Assembly (NCBI GenBank): GCA_015067795.1
Contig: SVLU01000013.1
Coordinates: 1-57,914, forward strand
Source: Oscillospiraceae bacterium
Lineage (GTDB): Bacteria; Bacillota; Clostridia; Oscillospirales; Oscillospiraceae
Length of the DNA stretch: 57,914 nucleotides
Direction of reading: 5' to 3'
The position numbers and the translations under genes are program-made. Shown here in pieces: positions 1 to 57,880 of the stretch; positions within the stretch are counted from its first letter, which is position 1; every line of letters begins with the position of its first letter. The notes beneath the pieces are model-generated. The model did no database searches and had not been told where the DNA came from. It saw only the letters and a list, made by a program, of their open reading frames with translations.

Positions 1-211
1 GCAAGTATGATATAATATCCGTTCCTTTCATACGCGAAGCGTATATCATCTGCGAAGCAGATATCATAGCGTCAGCTATATCACCCGTTCCAAAAGGAAC
101 GGATATCATTGAAAAAAGTCCCTTTTGTCAGTAGACAAAAGAGACTTTTTTCGTGCGAAAGACTACCTAAACGGAGCAGAATTGAGGTAAGAGTAAGCAA
201 AAGTACACCTA

Positions 212-968: not shown

Positions 969-1195
969 ATCACTACCGCCTTTCGTGAAATAAGTATATC
1001 ATAATTGTCAGGAAAGTTAAAGTGAAATATCCTTCGGATGTGAAATAATGACCCATGGTCATTGTGAAATATTGCTCCTTCGTCGCAATGTGAAATGAAA
1101 TAAATCCGCTCACGCCCGCAGGCATTTCACACGCCGTAGGCGTATTTCACGCACGAAGTGCATTTCACAAATCCCGCAAGGGATTTATTTCGTTG

Positions 1196-1238: not shown

Positions 1239-1327
1239 CTGGTGCCGGTGGCGGGGCTCGAACCCGCACGATGTTGCCACCAAAGGATTTTGAGTCCTCC
1301 TCGTCTACCAATTCCAACACACCGGCA
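1239..1327 (-). tRNA. tRNA-Leu (anticodon CAA), class II with a long variable arm, CCA encoded
   Basis: Reverse complement reads tgccggtgtgttggaattggtagacgaggaggactCAAaatcc...gggttcgagccccgccaccggcacca. It has a T-loop GGTTCGAGCC, a 3' CCA and an anticodon loop ctCAAaa. Confidence 0.85.
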
Positions 1328-7027: not shown

Positions 7028-8065
7028 TTACTGACCACGCAGGACCTTTTCTATTCGGAAAATTGCCTTTGCCGCATCATATGACCGATAAGAAAGAATA
7101 CTTTTCACGATCATAGGATCTCGCAGTTTAATATACCTTGTGGCAAGGTACTCCTTTTTGTACTGCTTTACCGCCATATCAAACCACTTATTTTCCAGGA
7201 ACACTTCCCTGAAAATCTCTTTTTTCTGCTCTTCATCCAGGCCGGACTTCATCAGCAGCCAGCCCAGGAAATTGCAGTAATCGGAAACACATCTTGCTCC
7301 GTAAGCCTGTGCTACATTCTCAGGCACGTTCCAAAGCTTCACGTATTTCCAGCCAAGTTCAATGCAGACACGAACGGCATGCCAGTAGTCCATATTTACA
7401 TTTGAGGTAATGCTGACAATGCTTCTTCTGTAAGAGTAAAGCACATCGGGAATGAAAACTATCCTTTTCGCCCTTGTATAAAGCTCGTAGCTTAGTATGG
7501 CATCATCACACATATTTTTAACACCAAGAGCATCATAATCCGTTTCAAAGTCCACAACAGAGCGCTTTATAGCCTTTGTCCACATATTATTGTACTTATT
7601 CTTCAGCAGGCGTTTTTTATAAATATCCTGCTTTCCGCCATTTTCATAAATCTGAATATCCTGAATATCAATTCCGGAGGGCTCTGTACGACCATCGGGA
7701 TAAAAAGACTCATAGTCGAACATGAGCATATCACAATCGTATTGTTCTATTGCTGCCACTATGGTCTGGAGATGATTTTCCTTGATGCAATCATCAGGAT
7801 CAACACTGACATACCAATCCCCCTTTGCCATAACAAAGCCGCGGCATCTGTTTTTTAGCACACCTTCATTCTCCTTGTGGATAACCCTCACGATATTTGG
7901 ATATGCCCGGGCATACTCGTCGCAAATCGTACCGCTGCTGTCCGTAGAACCGTCATCCAGCAGAAGCACCTCAAACTCCGCACCACTCTGGCTGAGAATG
8001 CTGTCCAGACACTGCCTTATGTACTTTTCAACATTGTAAACCGGAACAAGATAGGATATTAACAT
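7028..8065 (-). CDS. family 2 glycosyltransferase
   Basis: LISYLVPVYNVEKYIRQCLDSILSQSGAEFEVLLLDDGSTDSS. Confidence 0.8.
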   Translation of the reverse strand: MLISYLVPVYNVEKYIRQCLDSILSQSGAEFEVLLLDDGSTDSSGTICDEYARAYPNIVRVIHKENEGVLKNRCRGFVMAKGDWYVSVDPDDCIKENHLQTIVAAIEQYDCDMLMFDYESFYPDGRTEPSGIDIQDIQIYENGGKQDIYKKRLLKNKYNNMWTKAIKRSVVDFETDYDALGVKNMCDDAILSYELYTRAKRIVFIPDVLYSYRRSIVSITSNVNMDYWHAVRVCIELGWKYVKLWNVPENVAQAYGARCVSDYCNFLGWLLMKSGLDEEQKKEIFREVFLENKWFDMAVKQYKKEYLATRYIKLRDPMIVKSILSYRSYDAAKAIFRIEKVLRGQ

Positions 8066-8109
8066 ATTGAGTCCTTTCTGGCTTTGATTAGTACAACGTT
8101 TTGGTTAAA

Positions 8110-9030
8110 TCAATGTTTTCTCTTCTTTGGCAATTTAATCCATTCTCCCATTTGCAAGTTCCATTCATCCGGAGTAATTCTTGCAAAACCTGCTGAGTGA
8201 TAAAATGTTAATTCGCCAACATAGATTTTACCTTTAATTAGATAAAAATCCACTCTCAGATGAGGTATATCTTTAGATAGAATCTCTGCAAATTGTTTCA
8301 TTTTCTCAAAATGCTCCGGTTTTTGTGGTGCGATGTCCGCAGGGGGATCTTTTATCCGGATGGACAAATGGTTGAAATCCATATCAAAAAAATCTGTTCG
8401 AGGTTCTTTGCTGAAATCATTAGAAATATACATAATCTTTGCAGCACCATTAAAACAGAAAAACTTATAATCTGTCAGTCCTTCTGTACCGGAACCATCT
8501 TTCATATACTGCTCGCAAATGATTTTTCTATGTACATTTTTGTATGGCCATTCTCTTGAATTGAGATAAAAATTTTCCTGTAGTCCTTTTCTCAATTCAT
8601 TTCTAACTTCAGTATAATTCAACGTGGACTTATCTCGACAAATGCACATTCCTTTACCTGAATTGTGATTACACTTCAGTACAAACTGATCCGGCAAGGT
8701 ATCGAAATCTATATCATCTGGGTCATCCCCTACCCACAGTAAAGGAATCAGATACTCCTCGCCCAGTTTTTGGGCAATATATTCACGAACCCGATACTTA
8801 TCCACAAGTTGAGTGTATAACGGATTACGATCATACAGTTTCAGCCATTGTAATTTCTCGTTAAAGGTGACAGGATCCTTCAGGTTCAGTTTTTCTCCAA
8901 ATTCTTCTCTATACCTTTTCCTGATATACGCCTTATCTCCTGCATATTTATAATAAGCCAGATCCCGGTATTTCTTAATCTTTCTAAGCAACCAGTAATA
9001 TCGGTTTCTGATTTTCTGAATCAGTATCAT
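8110..9030 (-). CDS. ATP-grasp amidoligase, TupA-like (teichuronopeptide-type, adds an amino acid to a glycopolymer)
   Basis: About 300 aa with an ATP-grasp-like C-terminal half (...DFYLIKGKIYVGELTFYHSAGF...). The domain composition resembles the PF14305 family found in capsule and teichuronic acid loci. This is assigned from memory of the family and not verified. Confidence 0.5.
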   Translation of the reverse strand: MILIQKIRNRYYWLLRKIKKYRDLAYYKYAGDKAYIRKRYREEFGEKLNLKDPVTFNEKLQWLKLYDRNPLYTQLVDKYRVREYIAQKLGEEYLIPLLWVGDDPDDIDFDTLPDQFVLKCNHNSGKGMCICRDKSTLNYTEVRNELRKGLQENFYLNSREWPYKNVHRKIICEQYMKDGSGTEGLTDYKFFCFNGAAKIMYISNDFSKEPRTDFFDMDFNHLSIRIKDPPADIAPQKPEHFEKMKQFAEILSKDIPHLRVDFYLIKGKIYVGELTFYHSAGFARITPDEWNLQMGEWIKLPKKRKH

Positions 9031-10295
9031 TCTTTTTCCTCCACATGACGCAAACACGGAAGAACTGCAGATCCCCAGTTATTGTACCATTCCCGGAGAT
9101 GTATTGATTTCTCACTGTGTTCAACTGTGAATGCAAGCGCTTCACAGGTATCATAGGTAATCACATTTCCCTGATCAATCTGGTTATACAACTTTAAATT
9201 CAAAAAATAGCTGCCGGGAACAAAATAACGTGTATCAATAGTGATATCAGCATAGTTTAATCCTTCGGAATGCTCCAGTTTACCTAAAAAAGAGCCGCCT
9301 ACAACTCCTCTCGCACTGTTTATAAACAAAACTTTCAGTTCCAAATTTGCATCACTATCAGGACTTTCCCAGCCAAGTCGTATTTTTATTAAATCCCCAT
9401 ACATAAAATGATTGGTATTGCTATCCAGAATTTCAACACTATGAAGCTTGTGCTCCAAAGTACAGTGGTTGCCTCTGAGTAGATCATCGGGACCATAGTA
9501 GATCTTTTCCGCATCATCAGCCACCTTCATATAGATGCCGATAGCGGTATTGACATCACCATCATATACAGTCTGACCATGATCCAGAACAATACACCTG
9601 TCACAGAGGGCACGAATGGTAGCCATGTTGTGGCTGACATAGAGAATTGTCTTTCCGGAATCTGCAACTTCGCGCATTTTCTGGATGCACTTATTCTGAA
9701 AAGCCACATCACCGACAGCAAGAACCTCATCCATAATCATGATTTCAGAGTCCAGATGTGCCGCAACGGAAAAGGCGAGCTTTACATACATACCGGAAGA
9801 GTATCTCTTAACAGGAGTATCAATAAACTGACGCACCTCGGAAAATTCAATAATATCCTCCATTTTGGCATCAATTTCTTTTTTTGTCATGCCAAGGATA
9901 GCACCGTTCAGATAAACATTCTCTCGACCGGTAAGCTCCTGATGGAATCCGGTACCAACCTCCAGCATGGAGGCAACACGACCATTAAGATATATATCAC
10001 CTGTAGTAGGAGCTGTAATTCGGGTAATCAGCTTCAAAAGGGTGGATTTACCTGCACCGTTATGGCCGATAATACCAACAGCCTCACCCTTTTTGACTTC
10101 AAAAGACACACCATTTAATGCCATAAACCGCTCGTTGGAATCCGCTCTTGTTTCACCGATTTTCAGCGTTGGATCCTCCAAATGTTTCCGCTTTGCTCTG
10201 CGTCGCTGAAGCTCCTCGCGAAGTGTCGTTCCGCCAATAGCACCAAGACGGTATTCTTTTGTAACATCACTAACTTTAATCATTAATTCATCCAT
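9027..10295 (-). CDS. ABC transporter ATP-binding protein of a polysaccharide/teichoic-acid exporter (Wzt/TagH-like) with a C-terminal substrate-binding extension
   Basis: Walker A GHNGAGKST, signature LSSGMYVKL, Walker B IMIMDEVLAVGD. About 170 aa follow the nucleotide-binding domain. Start is ATG 10295, after the permease stop. Confidence 0.85.
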   Translation of the reverse strand: MDELMIKVSDVTKEYRLGAIGGTTLREELQRRRAKRKHLEDPTLKIGETRADSNERFMALNGVSFEVKKGEAVGIIGHNGAGKSTLLKLITRITAPTTGDIYLNGRVASMLEVGTGFHQELTGRENVYLNGAILGMTKKEIDAKMEDIIEFSEVRQFIDTPVKRYSSGMYVKLAFSVAAHLDSEIMIMDEVLAVGDVAFQNKCIQKMREVADSGKTILYVSHNMATIRALCDRCIVLDHGQTVYDGDVNTAIGIYMKVADDAEKIYYGPDDLLRGNHCTLEHKLHSVEILDSNTNHFMYGDLIKIRLGWESPDSDANLELKVLFINSARGVVGGSFLGKLEHSEGLNYADITIDTRYFVPGSYFLNLKLYNQIDQGNVITYDTCEALAFTVEHSEKSIHLREWYNNWGSAVLPCLRHVEEKE

Positions 10296-22555: not shown

Positions 22556-22825
22556 GTAAAAAATAAAGGCAGCGATGGAGATAGTATCGTGGCAATCGCA
22601 TTCACAGAGAGCTGTTGGTGCTGGGAAAACGGCAATGTCTGTCATGAGAAGCAACACTCCGGAGCCGACGGAAGAAAACCCTTTACAGGTGAGTAGAACC
22701 GTCCGTTGCATCGCGTAAAGATGAAAATGAAGAGGATTGTAATCAATCAATTTGGGTGGTATCGCGGAAGATGTCTTTCGTCCCATGGATGGGCGAATGT
22801 CATCTTCTTTTTTTATTTCATTTTT
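22556..22825 (+). ncRNA. T-box riboswitch leader of aspS, probably with a GAC (Asp) specifier
   Basis: AG-box AGAGAG at about 22603. The canonical T-box sequence AATTTGGGTGGTATCGCGG is at 22749-22767 and runs straight into the terminator hairpin gaagatgtc...gacatcttc plus a T-run at 22767-22814. A GAC triplet sits in a plausible specifier position (ccGACgga). Confidence 0.85.
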
Positions 22826-22886: not shown

Positions 22887-24650
22887 ATGTTAAGAACACA
22901 CACTTGTAATGAGTTGACCCTGAACCACATCGGCGAGACCGTAACACTCACCGGTTGGGTAGATACCGTTCGTGACCACGGCGGTGTTATTTTCGTTGAC
23001 CTGAGAGACCATTTTGGTGTTACACAGGTCGTTCTCTCTGATGACAGCCTCATTAACGGCATCAGCAAGGAAACCGTTGTTCTCATCGAAGGTAATGTTA
23101 CCCGCAGAGATGAAGAAACCATCAATCCAAAGATCGCAACAGGCATGATCGAGGTTCGTGCTGACCGTCTTGAGGTTCTTGGCCCAAGCCAGCAGTCCCT
23201 GCCTTTTGAAATCGACAATTCCACACAGACCCGTGAAGATGTACGTCTTAAGTACCGCTTCCTCGATCTGCGTAATCCAAAGATCCACAAGAACATCGTT
23301 CTTCGTTCCCAGGTTCTCAGCTATCTGAGAAGCCAGATGGAAGAAATGGGCTTCATGGAGATCCAGACACCTATCCTCACAGCTTCTTCCCCCGAAGGTG
23401 CTCGTGACTATCTGGTACCAAGCCGTAAGCACAAGGGCAAATTCTACGCTCTTCCACAGGCTCCACAGCAGTTCAAGCAGCTTCTGATGGCATCCGGCTT
23501 CGACCGTTACTTCCAGATCGCTCCATGCTTCCGTGACGAAGACGCACGTCAGGATCGTTCCCCCGGTGAATTCTACCAGCTGGACTTTGAAATGGCATTT
23601 GCAACTCAGGAGGACGTTTTTGAGGTAGCTGAACAGGTTATCTATAACACCTTCAAGAAGTTCACCGATAAGGAAATCTCCGCACCACCTTTCAAGCGTA
23701 TTCCATTCAACGAAGCAATGCTGAAGTACGGCACAGATAAGCCTGACCTTCGCAACCCACTTCTCATTCAGGACCTTACCGAATTCTTCGGCAAGCACGA
23801 ATTCCTGTACTTCAACGGCAGAACTATTCCTTTCAAGAACAAGCTGGTTCGCGGTATCGTTGCCAACTACCTTGTAAAGAAGGACGGCAAGAAGGCATTT
23901 GAAAAGGACATCGACGCATATTCCAGAAGCATCGGTATGCGCTTCGGCGTTGGTTATATCACCCTTGAAAACGGCGAATACAAGGGTCCTATCGCAAAGT
24001 TCCTTACAGAAGAACAGAAGGCTGAGCTTACTGAGCTTGTTGGCATCAAGGATGGCGAATCTCTCTTCTTCATCAGCGATACTCCTGCTGTTATCAACCA
24101 GCTTGCAGGTCAGATGAGAACATGGATCGCAAATGAGCTGAACCTCATCAATAAGGATGCATTTGAATTCTGCTATATCGTTGACTTCCCAATGTACGAA
24201 CGCAACAGCGAAACAAACAAGATCGACTTCACCCATAACCCATTCTCCATGCCACAGGGCGGTATGGACGCTCTTCTCAACAAGGATCCTCTTGAAATTT
24301 TTGCTTACCAGTACGACATCGTTTGCAACGGTATTGAGCTGTCCTCCGGTGCTGTTCGTAACCACAACCCTGAAATCATGAAGAAGGCATTTGAAATTGC
24401 CGGCTACGGCGAAGAGGATGTTAAGGCTAAGTTTGGTGCTCTGTATACCGCTTTCTCTTACGGTGCTCCTCCACACGCAGGCATGGCACCGGGCGTTGAC
24501 CGTATGATCATGCTCCTGGCAGGAGAAGAAACCATCCGTGACGTTATCGCATTCCCACTTAACGGCAATGCTCAGGACGTTATGATGGGTGCTCCCGGCG
24601 AAGTAACCGAACAGCAGCTGAGAGAAGTTCATATCAGAGTCAGAGACTAA
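22887..24650 (+). CDS. aspS: aspartyl-tRNA synthetase, probably non-discriminating since gatCAB follows
   Basis: The 587 aa product has an N-terminal OB-fold anticodon-binding domain and class II aaRS motifs (FRDEDARQDRSPGEFYQLDFE; GAPPHAGMAPGVDR). Confidence 0.95.
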   Translation: MLRTHTCNELTLNHIGETVTLTGWVDTVRDHGGVIFVDLRDHFGVTQVVLSDDSLINGISKETVVLIEGNVTRRDEETINPKIATGMIEVRADRLEVLGPSQQSLPFEIDNSTQTREDVRLKYRFLDLRNPKIHKNIVLRSQVLSYLRSQMEEMGFMEIQTPILTASSPEGARDYLVPSRKHKGKFYALPQAPQQFKQLLMASGFDRYFQIAPCFRDEDARQDRSPGEFYQLDFEMAFATQEDVFEVAEQVIYNTFKKFTDKEISAPPFKRIPFNEAMLKYGTDKPDLRNPLLIQDLTEFFGKHEFLYFNGRTIPFKNKLVRGIVANYLVKKDGKKAFEKDIDAYSRSIGMRFGVGYITLENGEYKGPIAKFLTEEQKAELTELVGIKDGESLFFISDTPAVINQLAGQMRTWIANELNLINKDAFEFCYIVDFPMYERNSETNKIDFTHNPFSMPQGGMDALLNKDPLEIFAYQYDIVCNGIELSSGAVRNHNPEIMKKAFEIAGYGEEDVKAKFGALYTAFSYGAPPHAGMAPGVDRMIMLLAGEETIRDVIAFPLNGNAQDVMMGAPGEVTEQQLREVHIRVRD

Positions 24651-24664
24651 GAAAGGAGCTATCT

Positions 24665-24946
24665 ATGGATAGAGAAGCTTTACGCAGACTGGAAAAGCTT
24701 AACCAGCTGCAGCTGAATGATGAACAGAAAGAAGATGTACTGGCTTTCTTTGCAGACCAGTATGACCGTATCGATAAGCTGTCCGCCATCGACACAGAAC
24801 AGGTGGAACGCATGGTACACGTAATGCCGATCTTCACGGTAGTACGTGATGACGTTGCCGTTCAGCCTTTCACTCGCGACCAGCTCCAGAAGGATGCTCC
24901 CGAGACAATGGATGGCTACTGGCAGGTTCCAAGACTTGTTGAATAA
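24665..24946 (+). CDS. gatC: Asp/Glu-tRNA amidotransferase subunit C
   Basis: 93 aa at the operon position between aspS and gatA. The small acidic, helical protein is typical of GatC. Confidence 0.85.
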   Translation: MDREALRRLEKLNQLQLNDEQKEDVLAFFADQYDRIDKLSAIDTEQVERMVHVMPIFTVVRDDVAVQPFTRDQLQKDAPETMDGYWQVPRLVE

Positions 24947-24969
24947 GTCCTTTTGAAAGGAAGATTCTT

Positions 24970-26175
24970 ATGAGATTATATGTAAATGAAAGTTCTAAGG
25001 CTGACGGCAAGCGTGTAGTGCTGGACGATATGCTCCTGACAACCGACCTGCCAACCACCGCAGGCTCTAAAATGCTTGAAAATTATGTAAGCCTTTTTGA
25101 AGCTGATATTATCAGCAAGCTGAGAAACGCAGGCTACTCCGTCTGCGGCAAGGCAAATATTGGTGAATTTGCAATCGACCTGCTGGGCGAAACATCCTGG
25201 TTCGGTGCCTGTGTCCGTGAGGACGGCACTCTCACCAATGCTTCCGCTGAGATTTTAGCAGACGACTCCATTGACGCTGTCATCTGCCTCGATGTAAACG
25301 GTGCACCAAGACGTGCTGCCGCTCTCGCAAACCGCGTTTTTATCAAGCCAACCTACGGCACAGTTTCCCGCTATGGCACTATCCCTGTTGCCTGCTCCGG
25401 TGAAACCGTCAGCGTTATGGCAGCAAGCACAGCAAAGTGCCGTGAGGCTCTTTCCGCTATCGTTGGTCATGACGATAAGGACGGCACAAGCCTTTCTGAA
25501 GCACAGTGTGCTCTTCTCAAGTCCGATGCTGAACGTAAGGCAGTAAAAAAGGTTGCTCTCGCTTCCTCTCTCACAGCTTCCGCCGACGAAGAGACAAAGG
25601 CAAAGATCAATGCTTTCCGTGCTTCCCTTGAAGCTCAGGGCATCACAGTAACCGAAATTGACGATCAGCTCCTTGGGGCTGCAAATACCGCATGGAACGT
25701 CCTGATGGCTGCCGAGCTTTGCAACAACGTATCCCGTTATGAGGGCGTTAAGTTCGGCTATCGTTCCCCTAACTACACAAACATCGACGAGCTGTATACA
25801 AACAGCCGTACCGAAGCTTTCGGTGATCTCCTCAAGACCACCATCCTGTTTGGCTCAGATGTGCTTTCCACCGACAATTACATGAAGATGTACGACAAGG
25901 GTCTCAGAGTTCGCAGAGTCATCTCCGAAGCATTTGCCGGTATTTTCAAGGAATATGATGCAGTTCTGATGCCTGCCTGTTCCAAGTGCAGTTATTCCGA
26001 AGCTGATGTTAAGGCAAACAAGTATATCGCATACGAAGAGAACGTTTACACAGCACCTGCTTCCATCACAGGTCTGCCTGCTGTTGTAGTGGGCGGTGTA
26101 CAGCTTGTGGGTGCTCCATTCTCCGACAACAGCCTGCTTGATGCTGCCGAAATCTACGAAAAGGAGCATAAGTGA
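24970..26175 (+). CDS. gatA: GatA-like amidotransferase subunit A paralogue: truncated (401 aa rather than about 485) and lacking the amidase-signature catalytic motif
   Basis: It retains DLPTTAGSKMLENY (the Lys of the triad) and KPTYGTVSRYG. The region that should read GGSSGGSAAAVA....GSDTGGSIR instead reads ASAEILADDSIDAV...LDVNGAPRRAAAL. About 45 N-terminal residues are also missing. Confidence 0.75.
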   Translation: MRLYVNESSKADGKRVVLDDMLLTTDLPTTAGSKMLENYVSLFEADIISKLRNAGYSVCGKANIGEFAIDLLGETSWFGACVREDGTLTNASAEILADDSIDAVICLDVNGAPRRAAALANRVFIKPTYGTVSRYGTIPVACSGETVSVMAASTAKCREALSAIVGHDDKDGTSLSEAQCALLKSDAERKAVKKVALASSLTASADEETKAKINAFRASLEAQGITVTEIDDQLLGAANTAWNVLMAAELCNNVSRYEGVKFGYRSPNYTNIDELYTNSRTEAFGDLLKTTILFGSDVLSTDNYMKMYDKGLRVRRVISEAFAGIFKEYDAVLMPACSKCSYSEADVKANKYIAYEENVYTAPASITGLPAVVVGGVQLVGAPFSDNSLLDAAEIYEKEHK

Positions 26176-27611
26176 TGAGTAAGTACGAAACCGTAATCGG
26201 CCTGGAAGTTCATGTTGAGCTTGCCACCGAATCGAAAATTTTCTGTTCCTGTTCCGCAAAGTTTGGTGCAGAACAGAACGATCACGTCTGTCCTGCCTGC
26301 TGTGGTATGCCGGGTATGCTCCCTGTAACCAACAAGCGTGTTGTTGACCTGGGCGTTACCGCAGGTCTGATGCTGAACTGCGATATCAACCGTGTTACCA
26401 CCTTCGACAAAAAGAGCTATTACTATCCTGACCTCCCCTGCTCCTATCAGACAACTCAGTGGTTTGCTCCTGTCTGTGTGAACGGTACAGTTACCATCGA
26501 GACTTCCAAGGGCAAGAAGGACATCCGCATTAAGCAGATCCATATGGAAGAAGATGCAGGCAAGCTGGTTCATGACGACTGGACCGACACCTCCCTTGTT
26601 GACTTCAACCGTACCAGTGTTCCTCTTATCGAGATCGTCAGCCAGCCTGACCTCTCCAGTGCTGAGGAGGTTGTAGCATACCTGGAACGTCTCCGTTCCC
26701 TTCTCCGTTTTGCAAAGGTTTCCGACTGCCGTATGGAACAGGGCTCCATGCGCTGTGACGTAAACCTCTCTGTACGTCCTGAGGGTAGCGATATTCTCGG
26801 TGTCAGAACCGAAATGAAGAACATGAACTCCCTGTCCGCTATTGAACGTGCTATCGAATACGAAACAGCAAGACATATCGACGCTATTGAACGCGGTACC
26901 GAAGTTCTTGTTCAGGAAACTCGCCGCTGGGACGACATCAAGGGCAAGAGCTACGCTATGCGTAACAAGGAAACCGCAGGCGACTATCGCTACTTCCCTG
27001 ATCCTAACGTAATGCCTATCGTTATTGACGACGAATGGTTTGCAAAGATCACATCCACAATTCCCGATCTCCCTGAAGTTAAGAAGCAGAAGTACATCGA
27101 AAACCTGGGCCTCAGCGAATACGATGCTGACCAGCTTGTTCAGAGCAGAGCTTTCTGCGATTGCTTTGAAGCTGCTTATGCTGAATGCGGCATGGCTAAG
27201 GACGTTGCAAACTGGGTTATCTCCGACTGTGCAAATATGCTGAACAAGAAGCAGATGACTGCTGATATGCTCACCATCGACGGCAAGGCTCTCGGTCAGC
27301 TTATAAAGCTCGTTGCAGACGGTAAGGTCAGCCGTGCAAACGCAAAGAAGATCCTTGCAGTTATGTTCAACGAAAACATTGATCCTGCAGCTTACGCCGA
27401 GGCTAACGGTCTTATCGTTTCCAACGACACAGGCAAGATCAAGGATGTCATCAGAGGCGTTCTGGATGCAGATCCAAAGTCCGTTGCTGACTATAAGAAT
27501 GGCAAGGAAAAAGCTCTCATGGCGCTCTTCGGCAAGTGTATGCGCGAGCTTAAGGGCAATTGCGACCCACAGCTTCTTAGAAGCTATCTCCTTGAAATGA
27601 TCAATCAGTAA
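26175..27611 (+). CDS. gatB: Asp/Glu-tRNA amidotransferase subunit B
   Basis: YETVIGLEVHVEL...CSC....C..C.G.PG..P at the N-terminus. The C-terminal YqeY/GatB tail is present. The ATG overlaps the gatA stop. Confidence 0.95.
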   Translation: MSKYETVIGLEVHVELATESKIFCSCSAKFGAEQNDHVCPACCGMPGMLPVTNKRVVDLGVTAGLMLNCDINRVTTFDKKSYYYPDLPCSYQTTQWFAPVCVNGTVTIETSKGKKDIRIKQIHMEEDAGKLVHDDWTDTSLVDFNRTSVPLIEIVSQPDLSSAEEVVAYLERLRSLLRFAKVSDCRMEQGSMRCDVNLSVRPEGSDILGVRTEMKNMNSLSAIERAIEYETARHIDAIERGTEVLVQETRRWDDIKGKSYAMRNKETAGDYRYFPDPNVMPIVIDDEWFAKITSTIPDLPEVKKQKYIENLGLSEYDADQLVQSRAFCDCFEAAYAECGMAKDVANWVISDCANMLNKKQMTADMLTIDGKALGQLIKLVADGKVSRANAKKILAVMFNENIDPAAYAEANGLIVSNDTGKIKDVIRGVLDADPKSVADYKNGKEKALMALFGKCMRELKGNCDPQLLRSYLLEMINQ

Positions 27612-47854: not shown

Positions 47855-47892
47855 TAGAGCTAACTGATTGATTAAGTCAGTTAGCTCTTTAA
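47855..47892. terminator. bidirectional terminator
   Basis: agagctaactga...tcagttagctct. Confidence 0.65.
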
Positions 47893-47987
47893 TTATTGAT
47901 AGTGAAATTTTGTTGCCATTTCGTTGCCACGAATGGCTCAAATCCTTAAAAAGTCCGGTGATGACTGGGCTTTTTCGACCTGCGGGA

Positions 47988-48968
47988 TCACTCCCACTCA
48001 ATAGTGCCGATAGGCTTTGGAGTGATGTCCATAACCACGCGGTTGATGCCTTCCACCTCATGGGTGATACGGTCGGTAATATGGTGCAGGATTGGATATG
48101 GGATTTCTTCGATGGTAGCTGTCATAGCGTCCACAGTGTTTACTGCACGGAGGATAGCAGGCCAGCCTTCATAACGCTTGCCGTCGCGAACACCAACGCT
48201 CTTGAAATCAGGAACAGCGATGAAATACTGCCATACCTTTTCGGCAAGGCCGTTCTTGTCAAATTCTTCACGGAGAATTGCATCAGCTTCACGCAGTGCG
48301 TGGAGACGATCTCTTGTGATAGCACCGAGGCAGCGTACACCAAGACCGGGACCTGGGAATGGCTGACGGTATACCATGCCGTGCGGCAGGCCAAGAGCTT
48401 CACCAACGACACGAACCTCGTCCTTATACAGAAGCTTTACAGGCTCAACAAGCTGCATTTCCATTTCTTCAGGCAGACCGCCAACATTGTGGTGTGCCTT
48501 AACGCCATCGGACTCGATGATGTCAGGATAAATTGTACCCTGTGCAAGGAAGGAGATGCCCTCCAGCTTTGCGGACTCTTCATCAAATACCTTAATGAAT
48601 TCTTCGCCGATGATCTTACGCTTGCGTTCTGGTTCAGCTACGCCAGCCAGCTTGTCCAGGAAGCGGTCGGTTGCATCCACATAAATAAGGTTTGCGTCCA
48701 GTGCCTTACCGAAAACTTCGATAACCTGTTCACTTTCACCCTTACGCATAAGACCGTGGTTTACATGAACACAGACGAGCTGCTTACCAATAGCCTTAAT
48801 GAGCAGAGCTGCAACAACGGAAGAATCAACACCACCGGACAGAGCCAGCAGAACCTTCTTATCTCCTACCTGATTGCGTACAGCCTCTACCTGCTCGGCA
48901 ATAAAAGCCTGCGCCAGTTCATTATTAGTAATGCGTTCCATTGTTTCCGGACGTTTGTTGTTTTCCAT
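47988..48968 (-). CDS. guaA: GMP synthase, ATP-pyrophosphatase/synthetase subunit only (GuaA C-terminal half, like archaeal GuaAB subunit B); no glutamine amidotransferase domain is encoded here
   Basis: P-loop SGGVDSSV, plus the dimerisation domain. The start has a strong AGGGAGG ribosome-binding site, and upstream intergenic DNA leads directly to purF. Confidence 0.8.
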   Translation of the reverse strand: MENNKRPETMERITNNELAQAFIAEQVEAVRNQVGDKKVLLALSGGVDSSVVAALLIKAIGKQLVCVHVNHGLMRKGESEQVIEVFGKALDANLIYVDATDRFLDKLAGVAEPERKRKIIGEEFIKVFDEESAKLEGISFLAQGTIYPDIIESDGVKAHHNVGGLPEEMEMQLVEPVKLLYKDEVRVVGEALGLPHGMVYRQPFPGPGLGVRCLGAITRDRLHALREADAILREEFDKNGLAEKVWQYFIAVPDFKSVGVRDGKRYEGWPAILRAVNTVDAMTATIEEIPYPILHHITDRITHEVEGINRVVMDITPKPIGTIEWE

Positions 48969-49043
48969 TGTAATGCCTCCCTTAATTTCTATGTAAAAAT
49001 ATTAAACAATAATCAGATAATTATACGCTTCCCTGTGAAATTA

Positions 49044-50471
49044 TTATTCTTTTCCGTCCCAGCAGTAGGTGCAGAGCTTGCATTTGTCAATACCGATAGC
49101 CTCAACAGCACCCTCAAGAGACTGGAATTCAAGAGATGCGAAATTGAACTTATCACATATAGCCTGACGCATTCTCTTGCCGCGTTCCGTGGAAGCGTCA
49201 CTGTATTCATCAATATACTTAAGTCCTTCTTCACCCTCAAGTTCAACAATAGTCTTGCGTGTGATAAGCTCCATTGGGCTGGTTGCACGGGAGAAGTTGA
49301 GATATTTGCAGCTATACATAATAGGTGGACAAGCAGAACGCATATGAACAGACTTCGCACCATTGTCATACAGGAATTCTACTGTTTCCTTAAGCTGTGT
49401 GCCTCTAACGATGGAGTCGTCAACGAACAGCAGATTTTTGCCTTCGATGAGCTCGTGAATAGCTATCTGCTTCATCTTTGCAACCTTATTTCTATCCCTC
49501 TGGTTGGTAGGAGTGAAGCTTCTTGCCCATGTTGGGGTATATTTAATGAAAGGACGTGCAAACGGAATACCGCTTTCATTTGCGTAGCCAATAGCATGAG
49601 GTGTGCCGGAATCAGGAACACCGCTTACATAGTCAATATCCGCTGCAGTCTTACTCTCAGCATCAGCCTTTGCCAAAATGCCGCCATTGCGATAACGCAT
49701 GGTTTCGACATTTTTACCTTCATATGTGGAGTTTGGATAGCCGTAATAGGTCCAGAGGAATGCACAAATACGCATTTCTTTTCTTGGCGGAAGAATTTCA
49801 CTAATGCCGTCGGCTGTAATTTCAACTGTTTCGCCGGGGCCCAGCTCCTTTACGGTCTCATATCCCAGCTTCTGGAATGCGAAGGATTCAAAGGATACGC
49901 AATGACCGTCCTTGGACTTGCCGATGATAACAGGCAGACGACCATAGCGGTCGCGTGCCGCGATAATACCGCCGTCATCCTTGAGAATAAGGATGGATGC
50001 TGTACCGTCGATGGAGTCCTGTGCAAACCTGATACCATCTGCAAATGTACTCTTTCTGTTGATAAGCGCCGCAACAAGCTCAGCGGAATTGACCTTACCG
50101 CTTGTCATGGCATTGAATTGACCTGTACCGAAATCCAGATTGTGCTGGATAAGCTCTTCCGCATTATTGATAACGCCTATGATGCAAATTGCATAGGTGC
50201 CGAGATTGGAGCGCATCAGCAGTGGCTGTGGATCATAGTCGCTGATACAGCCGATTGCGGAATTACCGCTCATCTCGTCAGTAATTCTTTCAAACTTTGT
50301 TCTGAATGGAGAGTTCTGAATATTGTGGATGTCACGCTGTAAGCCAAGTCCTTCAGCGTCATAAGCAGCCATGCCGCCTCTTCTTGTGCCAAGGTGAGAA
50401 TGATAGTCTGTGCCGTAAAATACGTCGGAAACTGCATCTCGTTTACTTGCTATTCCGAAAAATCCGCCCAT
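49044..50471 (-). CDS. purF: amidophosphoribosyltransferase (PurF) with Gly in place of the N-terminal Cys nucleophile
   Basis: Starts MGGFFGI where the canonical sequence is MCG(I/V)(V/F)G. It has a PRTase domain and a C-terminal Cys cluster (CKLCTYC). A GGAGGA ribosome-binding site lies 5 nt upstream of the ATG. Confidence 0.8.
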   Translation of the reverse strand: MGGFFGIASKRDAVSDVFYGTDYHSHLGTRRGGMAAYDAEGLGLQRDIHNIQNSPFRTKFERITDEMSGNSAIGCISDYDPQPLLMRSNLGTYAICIIGVINNAEELIQHNLDFGTGQFNAMTSGKVNSAELVAALINRKSTFADGIRFAQDSIDGTASILILKDDGGIIAARDRYGRLPVIIGKSKDGHCVSFESFAFQKLGYETVKELGPGETVEITADGISEILPPRKEMRICAFLWTYYGYPNSTYEGKNVETMRYRNGGILAKADAESKTAADIDYVSGVPDSGTPHAIGYANESGIPFARPFIKYTPTWARSFTPTNQRDRNKVAKMKQIAIHELIEGKNLLFVDDSIVRGTQLKETVEFLYDNGAKSVHMRSACPPIMYSCKYLNFSRATSPMELITRKTIVELEGEEGLKYIDEYSDASTERGKRMRQAICDKFNFASLEFQSLEGAVEAIGIDKCKLCTYCWDGKE

Positions 50472-50659
50472 AGTTTTCCTCCATTATGTATCTGATAAAA
50501 AACTTTTTGCAAATACATTATACGCAAAGAGTGTCTGAATTTCAATGAATAGTCTTACCAAATTTATGGAATTATTTGATTTAAATTTTGTAGTTTTAAA
50601 GAAATGTTCTTTCGCTCAGTAACCAATCGTACAGCATAATAAATTTAACAAAAAATGTA

Positions 50660-57760: not shown

Positions 57761-57764
57761 TTAT

Positions 57765-57880
<116 letters not shown>

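Follow-up and report, generated by a model that had tools for sequence, protein, structure and literature searches.

Bacterial GMP synthetases are known as two-domain, glutamine-dependent enzymes and stand-alone synthetase units as archaeal (PMC10526850, PMC9312489), and neither of these two sources describes a naturally glutaminase-free bacterial GMP synthetase. E. coli GuaA (1gpm, EC 6.3.5.2) carries a class-I glutamine amidotransferase (GATase) domain of about 200 aa with a Cys-His-Glu triad. Archaeal GuaAB (M. jannaschii, 6jp9; P. horikoshii PH1347, 2dpl) is a stand-alone unit of about 310 aa, made up of an ATP pyrophosphatase (ATPPase) and a dimerisation domain, that has a dedicated GATase partner subunit. 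Here we describe a short guaA gene found in a 57,914-nt stretch of DNA of an Oscillospiraceae bacterium (contig SVLU01000013.1, positions 1 to 57,914, assembly GCA_015067795.1; the whole of this stretch is called the window hereafter). Its product lacks the GATase domain of the E. coli enzyme and resembles archaeal GuaAB in being a stand-alone unit with the same P-loop, lid HHN and C-terminal TIEWE, but it is bacterial, has a shorter lid loop and belongs to a lineage in which the GATase domain appears to have decayed in cis. The gene and the signals at its start are the following:

47988..48968, minus strand: short guaA, encoding a 326-aa stand-alone GMP synthetase unit of GuaA2 type (Pfam, NCBIfam, alignment and tree)
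48976..48982, minus strand: ribosome-binding site AGGGAGG, 7 nt 5′ of the short guaA ATG (read from the sequence)
48969..49043, minus strand: intergenic spacer of 75 nt between a PurF-like gene and short guaA, too small for a GATase domain and with no terminator-like site

The 326-aa protein consists of an N-type ATPPase domain and a dimerisation/XMP-binding domain (XMP, xanthosine monophosphate) and has no GATase domain. Its Pfam matches are confined to a PP-loop/NAD_synthase-type stretch (residues 28-70) and to GMP_synt_C (residues 234-325), with PF00958 scoring 118 bits against a cutoff of 27, and no Pfam match to the class-I GATase family PF00117, which holds the Cys-His-Glu triad, was obtained anywhere in the chain. 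The NCBIfam models agree: TIGR00884 (guaA_Cterm) is matched by residues 22-326 with 432 bits (cutoff 338.75), and PRK00074 (glutamine-hydrolysing GMP synthase) with 449 bits (cutoff 400), the latter only over model positions 193-512 of 512. The P-loop reads LALSGGVDSSV, with SGGVDSS at residues 44-50, so that only 43 residues precede it. The automatic PGAP annotation nevertheless labels the protein 'glutamine-hydrolyzing GMP synthase' (EC 6.3.5.2), a name whose defining GATase domain is absent. The minus-strand sequence around the start is AAGGGAGGcattacaATG; since it contains AGGGAGG at 48976-48982, the ribosome-binding site is real, and there is an in-frame stop 11 codons 5′ of the ATG (stop-to-stop frame 47991..49001). 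Both the synthetase-only architecture with its SGGVDSSV P-loop and the genuine start marked by this ribosome-binding site had been proposed in a preliminary description made from the sequence alone, and both hold. An identical protein is encoded by a Ruminococcaceae metagenome-assembled genome (MAG; MBE6949122.1) and occurs amid the same neighbours on three JGI metagenome contigs.

An ordinary guaA gene that had been truncated, or frameshifted by a sequencing or assembly error, would also give a protein of unusual length, and length alone speaks for such an artefact. We therefore consider the orthologues found in a scan of species-representative genomes, in which the best 80 of at least 591 candidate stretches were inspected (organism names are those of the NCBI records). 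In all 80 species loci, which stem from distinct gut and rumen MAGs, the orthologue is 325-326 aa long and 84-92% identical to the window protein; the names include Faecousia, Acutalibacteraceae and Oscillospiraceae, and goat, sheep, deer, buffalo and human are among the sources. Any two of the 80 proteins are at least 80% identical, 88% on average, and the stop-to-stop frame around the gene spans 326-394 codons in every case. The best 120 database homologues are likewise nearly all of 325-326 aa (84-100% identity), and the family shares an N-terminal segment of about 20 aa, M..N.RPExMERIT..ELA..FI. Because all 80 orthologues are 325-326 aa long with in-frame stops just upstream, frameshift and truncation can be excluded as the source of the short form, and independent assemblies with the identical architecture rule out an assembly artefact. 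That is, no GATase domain is to be recovered by frameshift correction, a recovery that the preliminary description had named as one that would overturn its claim. The shared RPExMERIT..ELA N-terminus, the gene's own ribosome-binding site and the strong purifying selection all run counter to a pseudogene, an explanation that can practically be dismissed.

The relatives of the protein are bacterial. A HMMER scan of 1.84 billion cluster representatives returned a tight short clade that includes a 328-aa protein (P0242) with 74% identity to the window protein, whose cluster includes the cultured rumen isolate Aristaeella hokkaidonensis; beyond this clade the next-best matches are bacterial GuaA proteins at 54-60% identity. 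Among structures in the PDB, E. coli 1gpm ranks first (339 bits), ahead of archaeal 6jp9 (318 bits) and 2dpl (293 bits), and identity is 47-49% to the archaeal stand-alone form versus 55-59% to the bacterial two-domain enzymes. The identity values and the ranking therefore give no specific archaeal affinity and do not support an archaeal origin, so that the characterization of the gene as a split architecture typical of archaea, made in the preliminary description, is not supported. Carriage by phages or plasmids was also considered and rejected: phage matches are ordinary host guaA genes (54-57% identity), and the close matches found by tblastn of a plasmid collection are gut-community assembly contigs that are labelled plasmids and are chromosomal-type loci.

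Close relatives of the short proteins are second GuaA proteins of 429-435 aa from Subdoligranulum, Bacteroides and Parabacteroides (WP_022191716.1, WP_055279793.1). In Parabacteroides distasonis a gap of 51 nt separates the gene for a canonical 506-aa GuaA from a downstream gene for a 435-aa 'GuaA', a protein that Bacteroides finegoldii has as well, and in Subdoligranulum variabile the gene order is tuf, canonical guaA, 429-aa paralogue. The Bacteroides proteins of this type are presumably those that Swiss-Prot lists as 'putative GMP synthase 2', guaA2. In the ATPPase part the 429-435-aa proteins share 73-77% identity with the window protein, against 51-58% for canonical GuaA. Their N-terminal ~120 aa match the Pfam GATase family over positions 1-76 only (30 bits), and the alignment shows that this remnant is without the G(I/V)CYG nucleophile elbow and without the entire half that bears the His and Glu. 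Like the short genes of several relatives, these second guaA genes lie beside a canonical guaA and have integrases nearby, and in both protein types the second Pro of KPP is lost; they differ in that the ~120-aa dead remnant is absent from the window protein, which has the conserved ~20-aa segment MENNKRPETMERITNNELA in its place. The window protein is therefore best described as a further-reduced variant of the same clade.

This relationship was recovered in a neighbour-joining distance tree of 42 ATPPase units (310 columns, 100 bootstraps), in which the deep branches are weakly supported and do not resolve. The window protein, four other short proteins, an Aristaeella-type protein and three remnant-bearing proteins form a clade of nine with 100% bootstrap support, apart from the canonical GuaA of the same genomes; GuaA2 is our own name for this clade. 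Loss of the glutaminase is common around the window protein, as follows from the motifs and architectures of its 150 nearest cluster representatives, among which canonical two-domain proteins number 22, full-length proteins without the Cys or the HPE motif 18, proteins with an N-terminal remnant of 90-189 aa 25 (both motifs being absent from 21 of these) and stand-alone units 14. A dead GATase remnant still fused in cis in the nearest relatives points to decay rather than fission. Judged by these comparisons, the short GuaA is a paralogue of the bacterial GuaA2 clade, in which the GATase domain has decayed in cis or been lost, and not an archaeal-style split gene.

Some relatives call for separate mention. 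P0001 (435 aa, with two PP-loop stretches) looks like an assembly chimera, and P0253 (437 aa) looks chimeric as well, a Parabacteroides GuaA2 N-terminus being joined to a Subdoligranulum-like canonical C-terminus; both are thus unfit as evidence of architecture. Two others are degenerate. In locus L014 a 416-aa GuaA-like protein that has lost the P-loop and has a KPPAAIEWE tail is encoded beside an NH3-type NadE-like gene and short guaA, and the 332-aa protein P0304 has the N-terminus of the short family, TGDLRSY in the place of SGGVDSS and no HHN lid motif (degenerate and NadE-like genes: L014 6517..7764 and 7845..8588; L051 10982..11728). By their lost motifs, the 416-aa protein and P0304 are likely pseudo-enzymes.

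A synthetase unit without a GATase domain could still belong, as subunit B, to a two-subunit GMP synthetase of archaeal style, with a stand-alone class-I GATase encoded elsewhere in the genome. Precedents exist in M. jannaschii and P. horikoshii, the genes of the two subunits may be unlinked and their complex transient, and the DXXES and KDEVR motifs, which serve the interface as well as catalysis, are kept in the window protein. The searches for a partner were negative. In the six frames of the 57.9-kb window, no GuaA-type class-I GATase was found either by phmmer with an E. coli GATase probe (best E 0.93) or with a hidden Markov model built from 13 GATase domains (best E 0.12); residues 214-525 of the E. 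coli GuaA probe sequence agree with the 1gpm alignment. Within 10 kb of the gene at the 80 species loci, no stand-alone GuaA-type GATase was found besides full-length guaA genes, the weak GATase matches (22-27 bits) belonging to three unrelated open reading frames (ORFs) in L014, L051 and L066. Together with the 75-nt gap upstream, these results bear out the earlier statement that no glutaminase gene adjoins short guaA. Moreover, the cis remnants of the nearest relatives indicate decay, the sequence is not especially close to archaeal subunit B, and the lid loop, of normal length in the archaeal stand-alone form, is truncated in the window protein. A two-subunit enzyme is, in our judgement, decidedly improbable.

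The preliminary description had reasoned that a lone synthetase half implies either the use of ammonia or a distant glutaminase. Ammonia is indeed the option that we favour, at about even confidence, but the dichotomy missed a third situation, in that comparison with related genomes, which it had recommended, reveals a co-existing canonical full-length guaA in several relatives, often immediately adjacent. In a very abundant human-gut species (L031) the order is purA, canonical guaA (516 aa with GATase), a 21-nt gap and short guaA, and this order is confirmed by two independent assemblies with gene calls (L085 and L086); a rumen MAG (L025) has a 512-aa guaA followed by short guaA. Overall, a canonical guaA adjoins the GuaA2 gene in L025, L031/L085/L086, L110, L128/L138, L165, Subdoligranulum and Parabacteroides. 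When metagenomes were scanned with the GATase domain as seed, 80 loci with a canonical guaA were obtained, and in nine of them a short gene adjoins it. If lineages are counted as separate where their canonical proteins share less than 90% identity, the guaA-short guaA pair is found in at least four Oscillospirales lineages (the L031 group, L025, L110 and L165). The short GuaA is 50-56% identical to the resident canonical GuaA. Since in these lineages it resides beside a complete canonical gene, the short gene is a paralogue and not a missing half.

Such pairs raise the possibility that the short protein acts as a partner of canonical GuaA, either in a heterodimer formed through the dimerisation domain or by receiving ammonia in trans from the canonical GATase, that is, as an auxiliary or regulatory subunit. 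The tandem arrangement of guaA and guaA2 recurs in both Firmicutes and Bacteroidota with gaps of 21-148 nt, and the dimer interface of GMP synthetase contributes to XMP binding, which would fit a mixed dimer. However, in the window and in most of the 80 loci short guaA lies apart from guaA, among unrelated or other purine genes, and the dimerisation domain is divergent (overall identity 51-58%), with changes at invariant C-terminal residues. We regard a role as a partner of canonical GuaA as unlikely.

The two paralogues appear to have had different histories. Between L025 and L031 the short GuaA proteins are 92-94% identical and the canonical ones 65-67%; between Parabacteroides and Subdoligranulum (L172 5626..6933 versus L174 5644..6933) the values are 80% for GuaA2 and 59% for canonical GuaA. 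In the tree, the short protein of L025 groups with that of L031 and the window protein, whereas the canonical protein of L025 groups with those of L110 and L165. These incongruent positions, along with an identity across hosts that is higher for GuaA2 than for canonical GuaA, suggest that GuaA2 genes may have been exchanged horizontally among gut bacteria, possibly across phyla.

The 3′ end of short guaA/GuaA2 genes is, as a separate observation, an integration hot spot. A tyrosine integrase gene lies at most 4 kb downstream in 15 of the 50 loci with enough flank (L006, L010, L012, L015, L018, L023, L024, L029, L034, L039, L050, L060, L064, L065 and L077), and genes for XRE-type helix-turn-helix and NikA-like mobilisation proteins recur downstream of short guaA. 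L174 (7144..10614) is a further instance of the hot spot. Relative to L085, L086 has a 4161-bp insert (L086 8554..12714) that begins exactly after the short guaA stop codon; no exact direct repeat of at least 14 nt was found flanking this insert.

The synthetase machinery of the window protein is largely intact. Seventy-three of the 78 invariant or near-invariant ATPPase columns, as defined from 16 canonical or archaeal units, are kept, including SGGVDSS, KRKIIG, QGTIYPD, D..ES, K.HHNVGGLP, EP, KDEVR, PFPGPGL and K..T.EWE, and the protein is 56% identical to the whole ATPPase half of E. coli GuaA. The DXXES helix reads DIIES and the KD(D/E)V(K/R) motif KDEVR. In the lid motif IK(T/S)HHN, which reads VKAHHN, the K, both H and the N are kept while I is changed to V and T/S to A. 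The three motifs have catalytic and inter-domain roles, and in PfGMPS the T387A mutant is only marginally impaired (PMC10526850). The lid loop itself has an 8-residue deletion relative to E. coli GuaA, whereas the archaeal stand-alone form retains a loop of normal length; the lid segment of PfGMPS moves with rotation of the GATase (PMC10526850). In the tail, KPPxTIEWE reads KPIGTIEWE, that is, K, T, E, W and E are kept and the second Pro, invariant in all 16 references, is replaced by Ile. The remnant-bearing GuaA2 proteins are intermediate, with a lid of intermediate length, Tyr512 (E. coli numbering) kept and Pro519 lost.

Upstream of short guaA lies a second gene whose product also appears to have lost its glutaminase. 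The features concerned are the following:

49044..50471, minus strand: gene for a PurF-like amidophosphoribosyltransferase paralogue of 475 aa (TIGR01134, 182 bits, cutoff 350)
50517..50545, minus strand: sigma-70-like promoter TTGAAA-17-TATAAT, 5′ of the PurF-like gene (11 of 12 positions; consensus match only)
47856..47888, no strand assigned: hairpin with a 14-bp stem between the convergent short guaA and a LuxR-type gene, likely a bidirectional terminator

The earlier statement that the DNA upstream of short guaA runs into purF is correct as far as a PurF-like gene is concerned, but the 182 bits fall below the purF cutoff of 350 and the catalytic Cys is absent. Aligned with B. subtilis PurF (1ao0), the protein has Gly (residue 2) at the position of Cys1, Leu in place of Arg26 and no Asn101-Gly102 oxyanion motif; the phosphoribosyltransferase motifs GVPDS and VDDSIVRGT and all four Fe-S cysteines are intact. 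By this alignment, the glutaminase site of the neighbour is dead. The N-terminus reads MGG[FY]FG in 119 of the 120 best homologues. In two other Clostridia (L168 and L170, both at 8001..9425) the PurF-like gene is X in the order purE-(purC)-X-purM-purN-IMP cyclohydrolase-purH-purD-purL, in which PurL keeps its GATase_5 domain. The gene fills the purF slot of the pur operon and is therefore the operon's own PurF, without the glutaminase nucleophile. This suggests that the Cys1-less clade, annotated simply as amidophosphoribosyltransferase, may carry out ammonia-dependent synthesis of phosphoribosylamine.

In the window, the promoter upstream, the lack of a terminator-like site in the 75-nt gap and the hairpin after short guaA predict a two-gene operon, so that the PurF-like gene (first) and short guaA are probably co-transcribed. 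No Rfam element reached the gathering threshold near short guaA in the window or in eight related loci, and a riboswitch or leader upstream of the gene was discarded as a candidate for that reason. Across species the context varies. The most frequent neighbour, in 25 of about 80 loci, is a CofE-like F420_ligase (PF01996) gene located directly upstream in the same orientation (median gap 18 nt; e.g. L029 8786..9976), whose product of about 397 aa contains an inserted segment; others are cysK (seven loci), canonical purF (L080) and NH3-type NadE-like genes (L014 and L051). A conserved neighbourhood with rpoA/rplQ was considered, but these genes are neighbours in L001 only. An 824-aa stop-free ORF (47868..50342, plus strand) runs antisense across short guaA and the PurF-like gene; because no family supports it and two well-supported genes occupy the same DNA, it is a frame artefact, liable to be mis-called by a gene caller that picks the longest ORF.

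We favour the reading that the short GuaA is a glutaminase-independent GMP synthetase that uses ammonia, and place about half of our confidence in it. The protein would act as a homodimer, adenylate XMP with ATP and aminate the adenyl-XMP with free cytoplasmic ammonia (chemistry of the EC 6.3.4.1 type), which would let ammonia-rich gut anaerobes make GMP without glutamine, either in addition to canonical GuaA or in its place. In the window, the predicted operon would pair glutaminase-free versions of two amidotransferase steps of the purine pathway. Counterpart pairs of ammonia-dependent enzymes and glutamine amidotransferases exist in families other than that of GMP synthetase, as with AsnA and AsnB, and NH3-type and glutamine-dependent NadE are reportedly another such pair. 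The Cys-less PurF′ of Crenarchaeota offers a parallel, being a synthetase without glutaminase that would use free ammonia, though from a different enzyme family (PMC3261824).

Several lines of evidence are consistent with this reading. The graded loss of the glutaminase within one clade, the conserved synthetase, the trimmed lid and the pairing with a Cys-less PurF all point to the use of ammonia. The ATPPase module of every GMP synthetase studied works without the GATase and uses external ammonia, and the M. jannaschii ATPPase subunit on its own makes GMP from NH4Cl (Km 4.1 mM) with a kcat, 1.9 per s, that matches the glutamine-dependent rate. Carriers of short guaA are ruminant and human gut MAGs, with the NH3-type NadE-like genes of L014 and L051 adjoining it. 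A preference for ammonia, or a requirement for it, is documented in gut Bacteroides, Prevotella and Ruminococcus bromii (PMC4446752). As for the neighbour, Cys1 mutants of E. coli PurF retain ammonia-dependent activity, and the crenarchaeal PurF′ has been proposed to be ammonia-dependent (PMC3261824).

Four points weigh against the favoured reading. Firstly, the Km for NH4+ of the two-domain GMP synthetases studied is high, 10-174 mM. Secondly, the interface motifs DXXES and KDEVR are retained on the ATPPase side; they are also catalytic, yet their retention leaves a glutaminase acting in trans compatible with the sequence. Thirdly, in several relatives the GuaA2 gene follows canonical guaA by 21-51 nt and is probably co-expressed with it, a spacing that fits a hetero-oligomer as well as an isozyme. 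Fourthly, two residues near the XMP-binding tail that are invariant in 16 of 16 references are replaced in a family-specific way (Tyr512 by Met and Pro519 by Ile, E. coli numbering), which leaves room for an altered substrate. The last point bears on neofunctionalization, that is, on a protein that aminates or adenylates a substrate other than XMP or serves as a non-catalytic nucleotide sensor. The shortened lid, the CofE-like gene as the commonest neighbour and the occurrence of degenerate relatives without a P-loop (the 416-aa protein of L014 and P0304) would be in line with such a change. Nearly all other conserved ATPPase residues are kept, however, the scores exceed the cutoffs of curated GuaA equivalogs, and purine contexts recur (purA-guaA, canonical purF in L080, PurF-like), so that a new function appears rather improbable.

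Beyond the single enzyme, a wider scenario can be put forward tentatively, which we hold possible while doubting it somewhat. Gut and rumen Clostridia would run part of their purine synthesis on free ammonia, with the Cys1-less PurF (the operon's own) and GuaA2 as dedicated ammonia enzymes, co-transcribed in the window, that bypass glutamine; both would incidentally be insensitive to glutamine analogues that attack the Cys, and GuaA2 would have spread horizontally, including across phyla.

Elsewhere in the window lie a cluster for polysaccharide synthesis, aspS-gatA-gatB behind a T-box leader, and further unrelated genes. The T-box leader (22563..22788, plus strand, 108 bits) is followed by genes for AspS (587 aa), a GatA-like amidase and GatB (22887..27611, plus strand), an order suggestive of a T-box-controlled operon for tRNA-dependent transamidation. 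The Gut-1 RNA motif occurs twice at one end (38..111 and 1119..1195, both minus strand; 50.5 and 77.8 bits), together with a tRNA (1243..1326), and there is a 5S rRNA (57764..57880, minus strand) at the far end.

Within the literature accessible to it, a search on guaA2, Bacteroides guaA paralogues and ammonia-dependent GMP synthase found nothing on the GuaA2 clade. The chemistry of the short GuaA is not categorically new, since functionally the protein is like the archaeal ATPPase subunit working alone. What departs from the textbook architecture, and has gone unrecognised, is a conserved and widespread bacterial clade with a decayed or absent glutaminase, carried by at least 80 Oscillospirales species from gut and rumen; the case gains coherence from the Cys-less PurF encoded beside the gene. 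If the use of ammonia is true, the annotation and the metabolic models of abundant gut anaerobes would need correction, and the known ammonia dependence of such gut bacteria would be tied to nucleotide synthesis. Furthermore, intact, dead, truncated and absent glutaminases, together with the Cys-less PurF, would then make up a natural series in which the loss of glutamine coupling may be studied.

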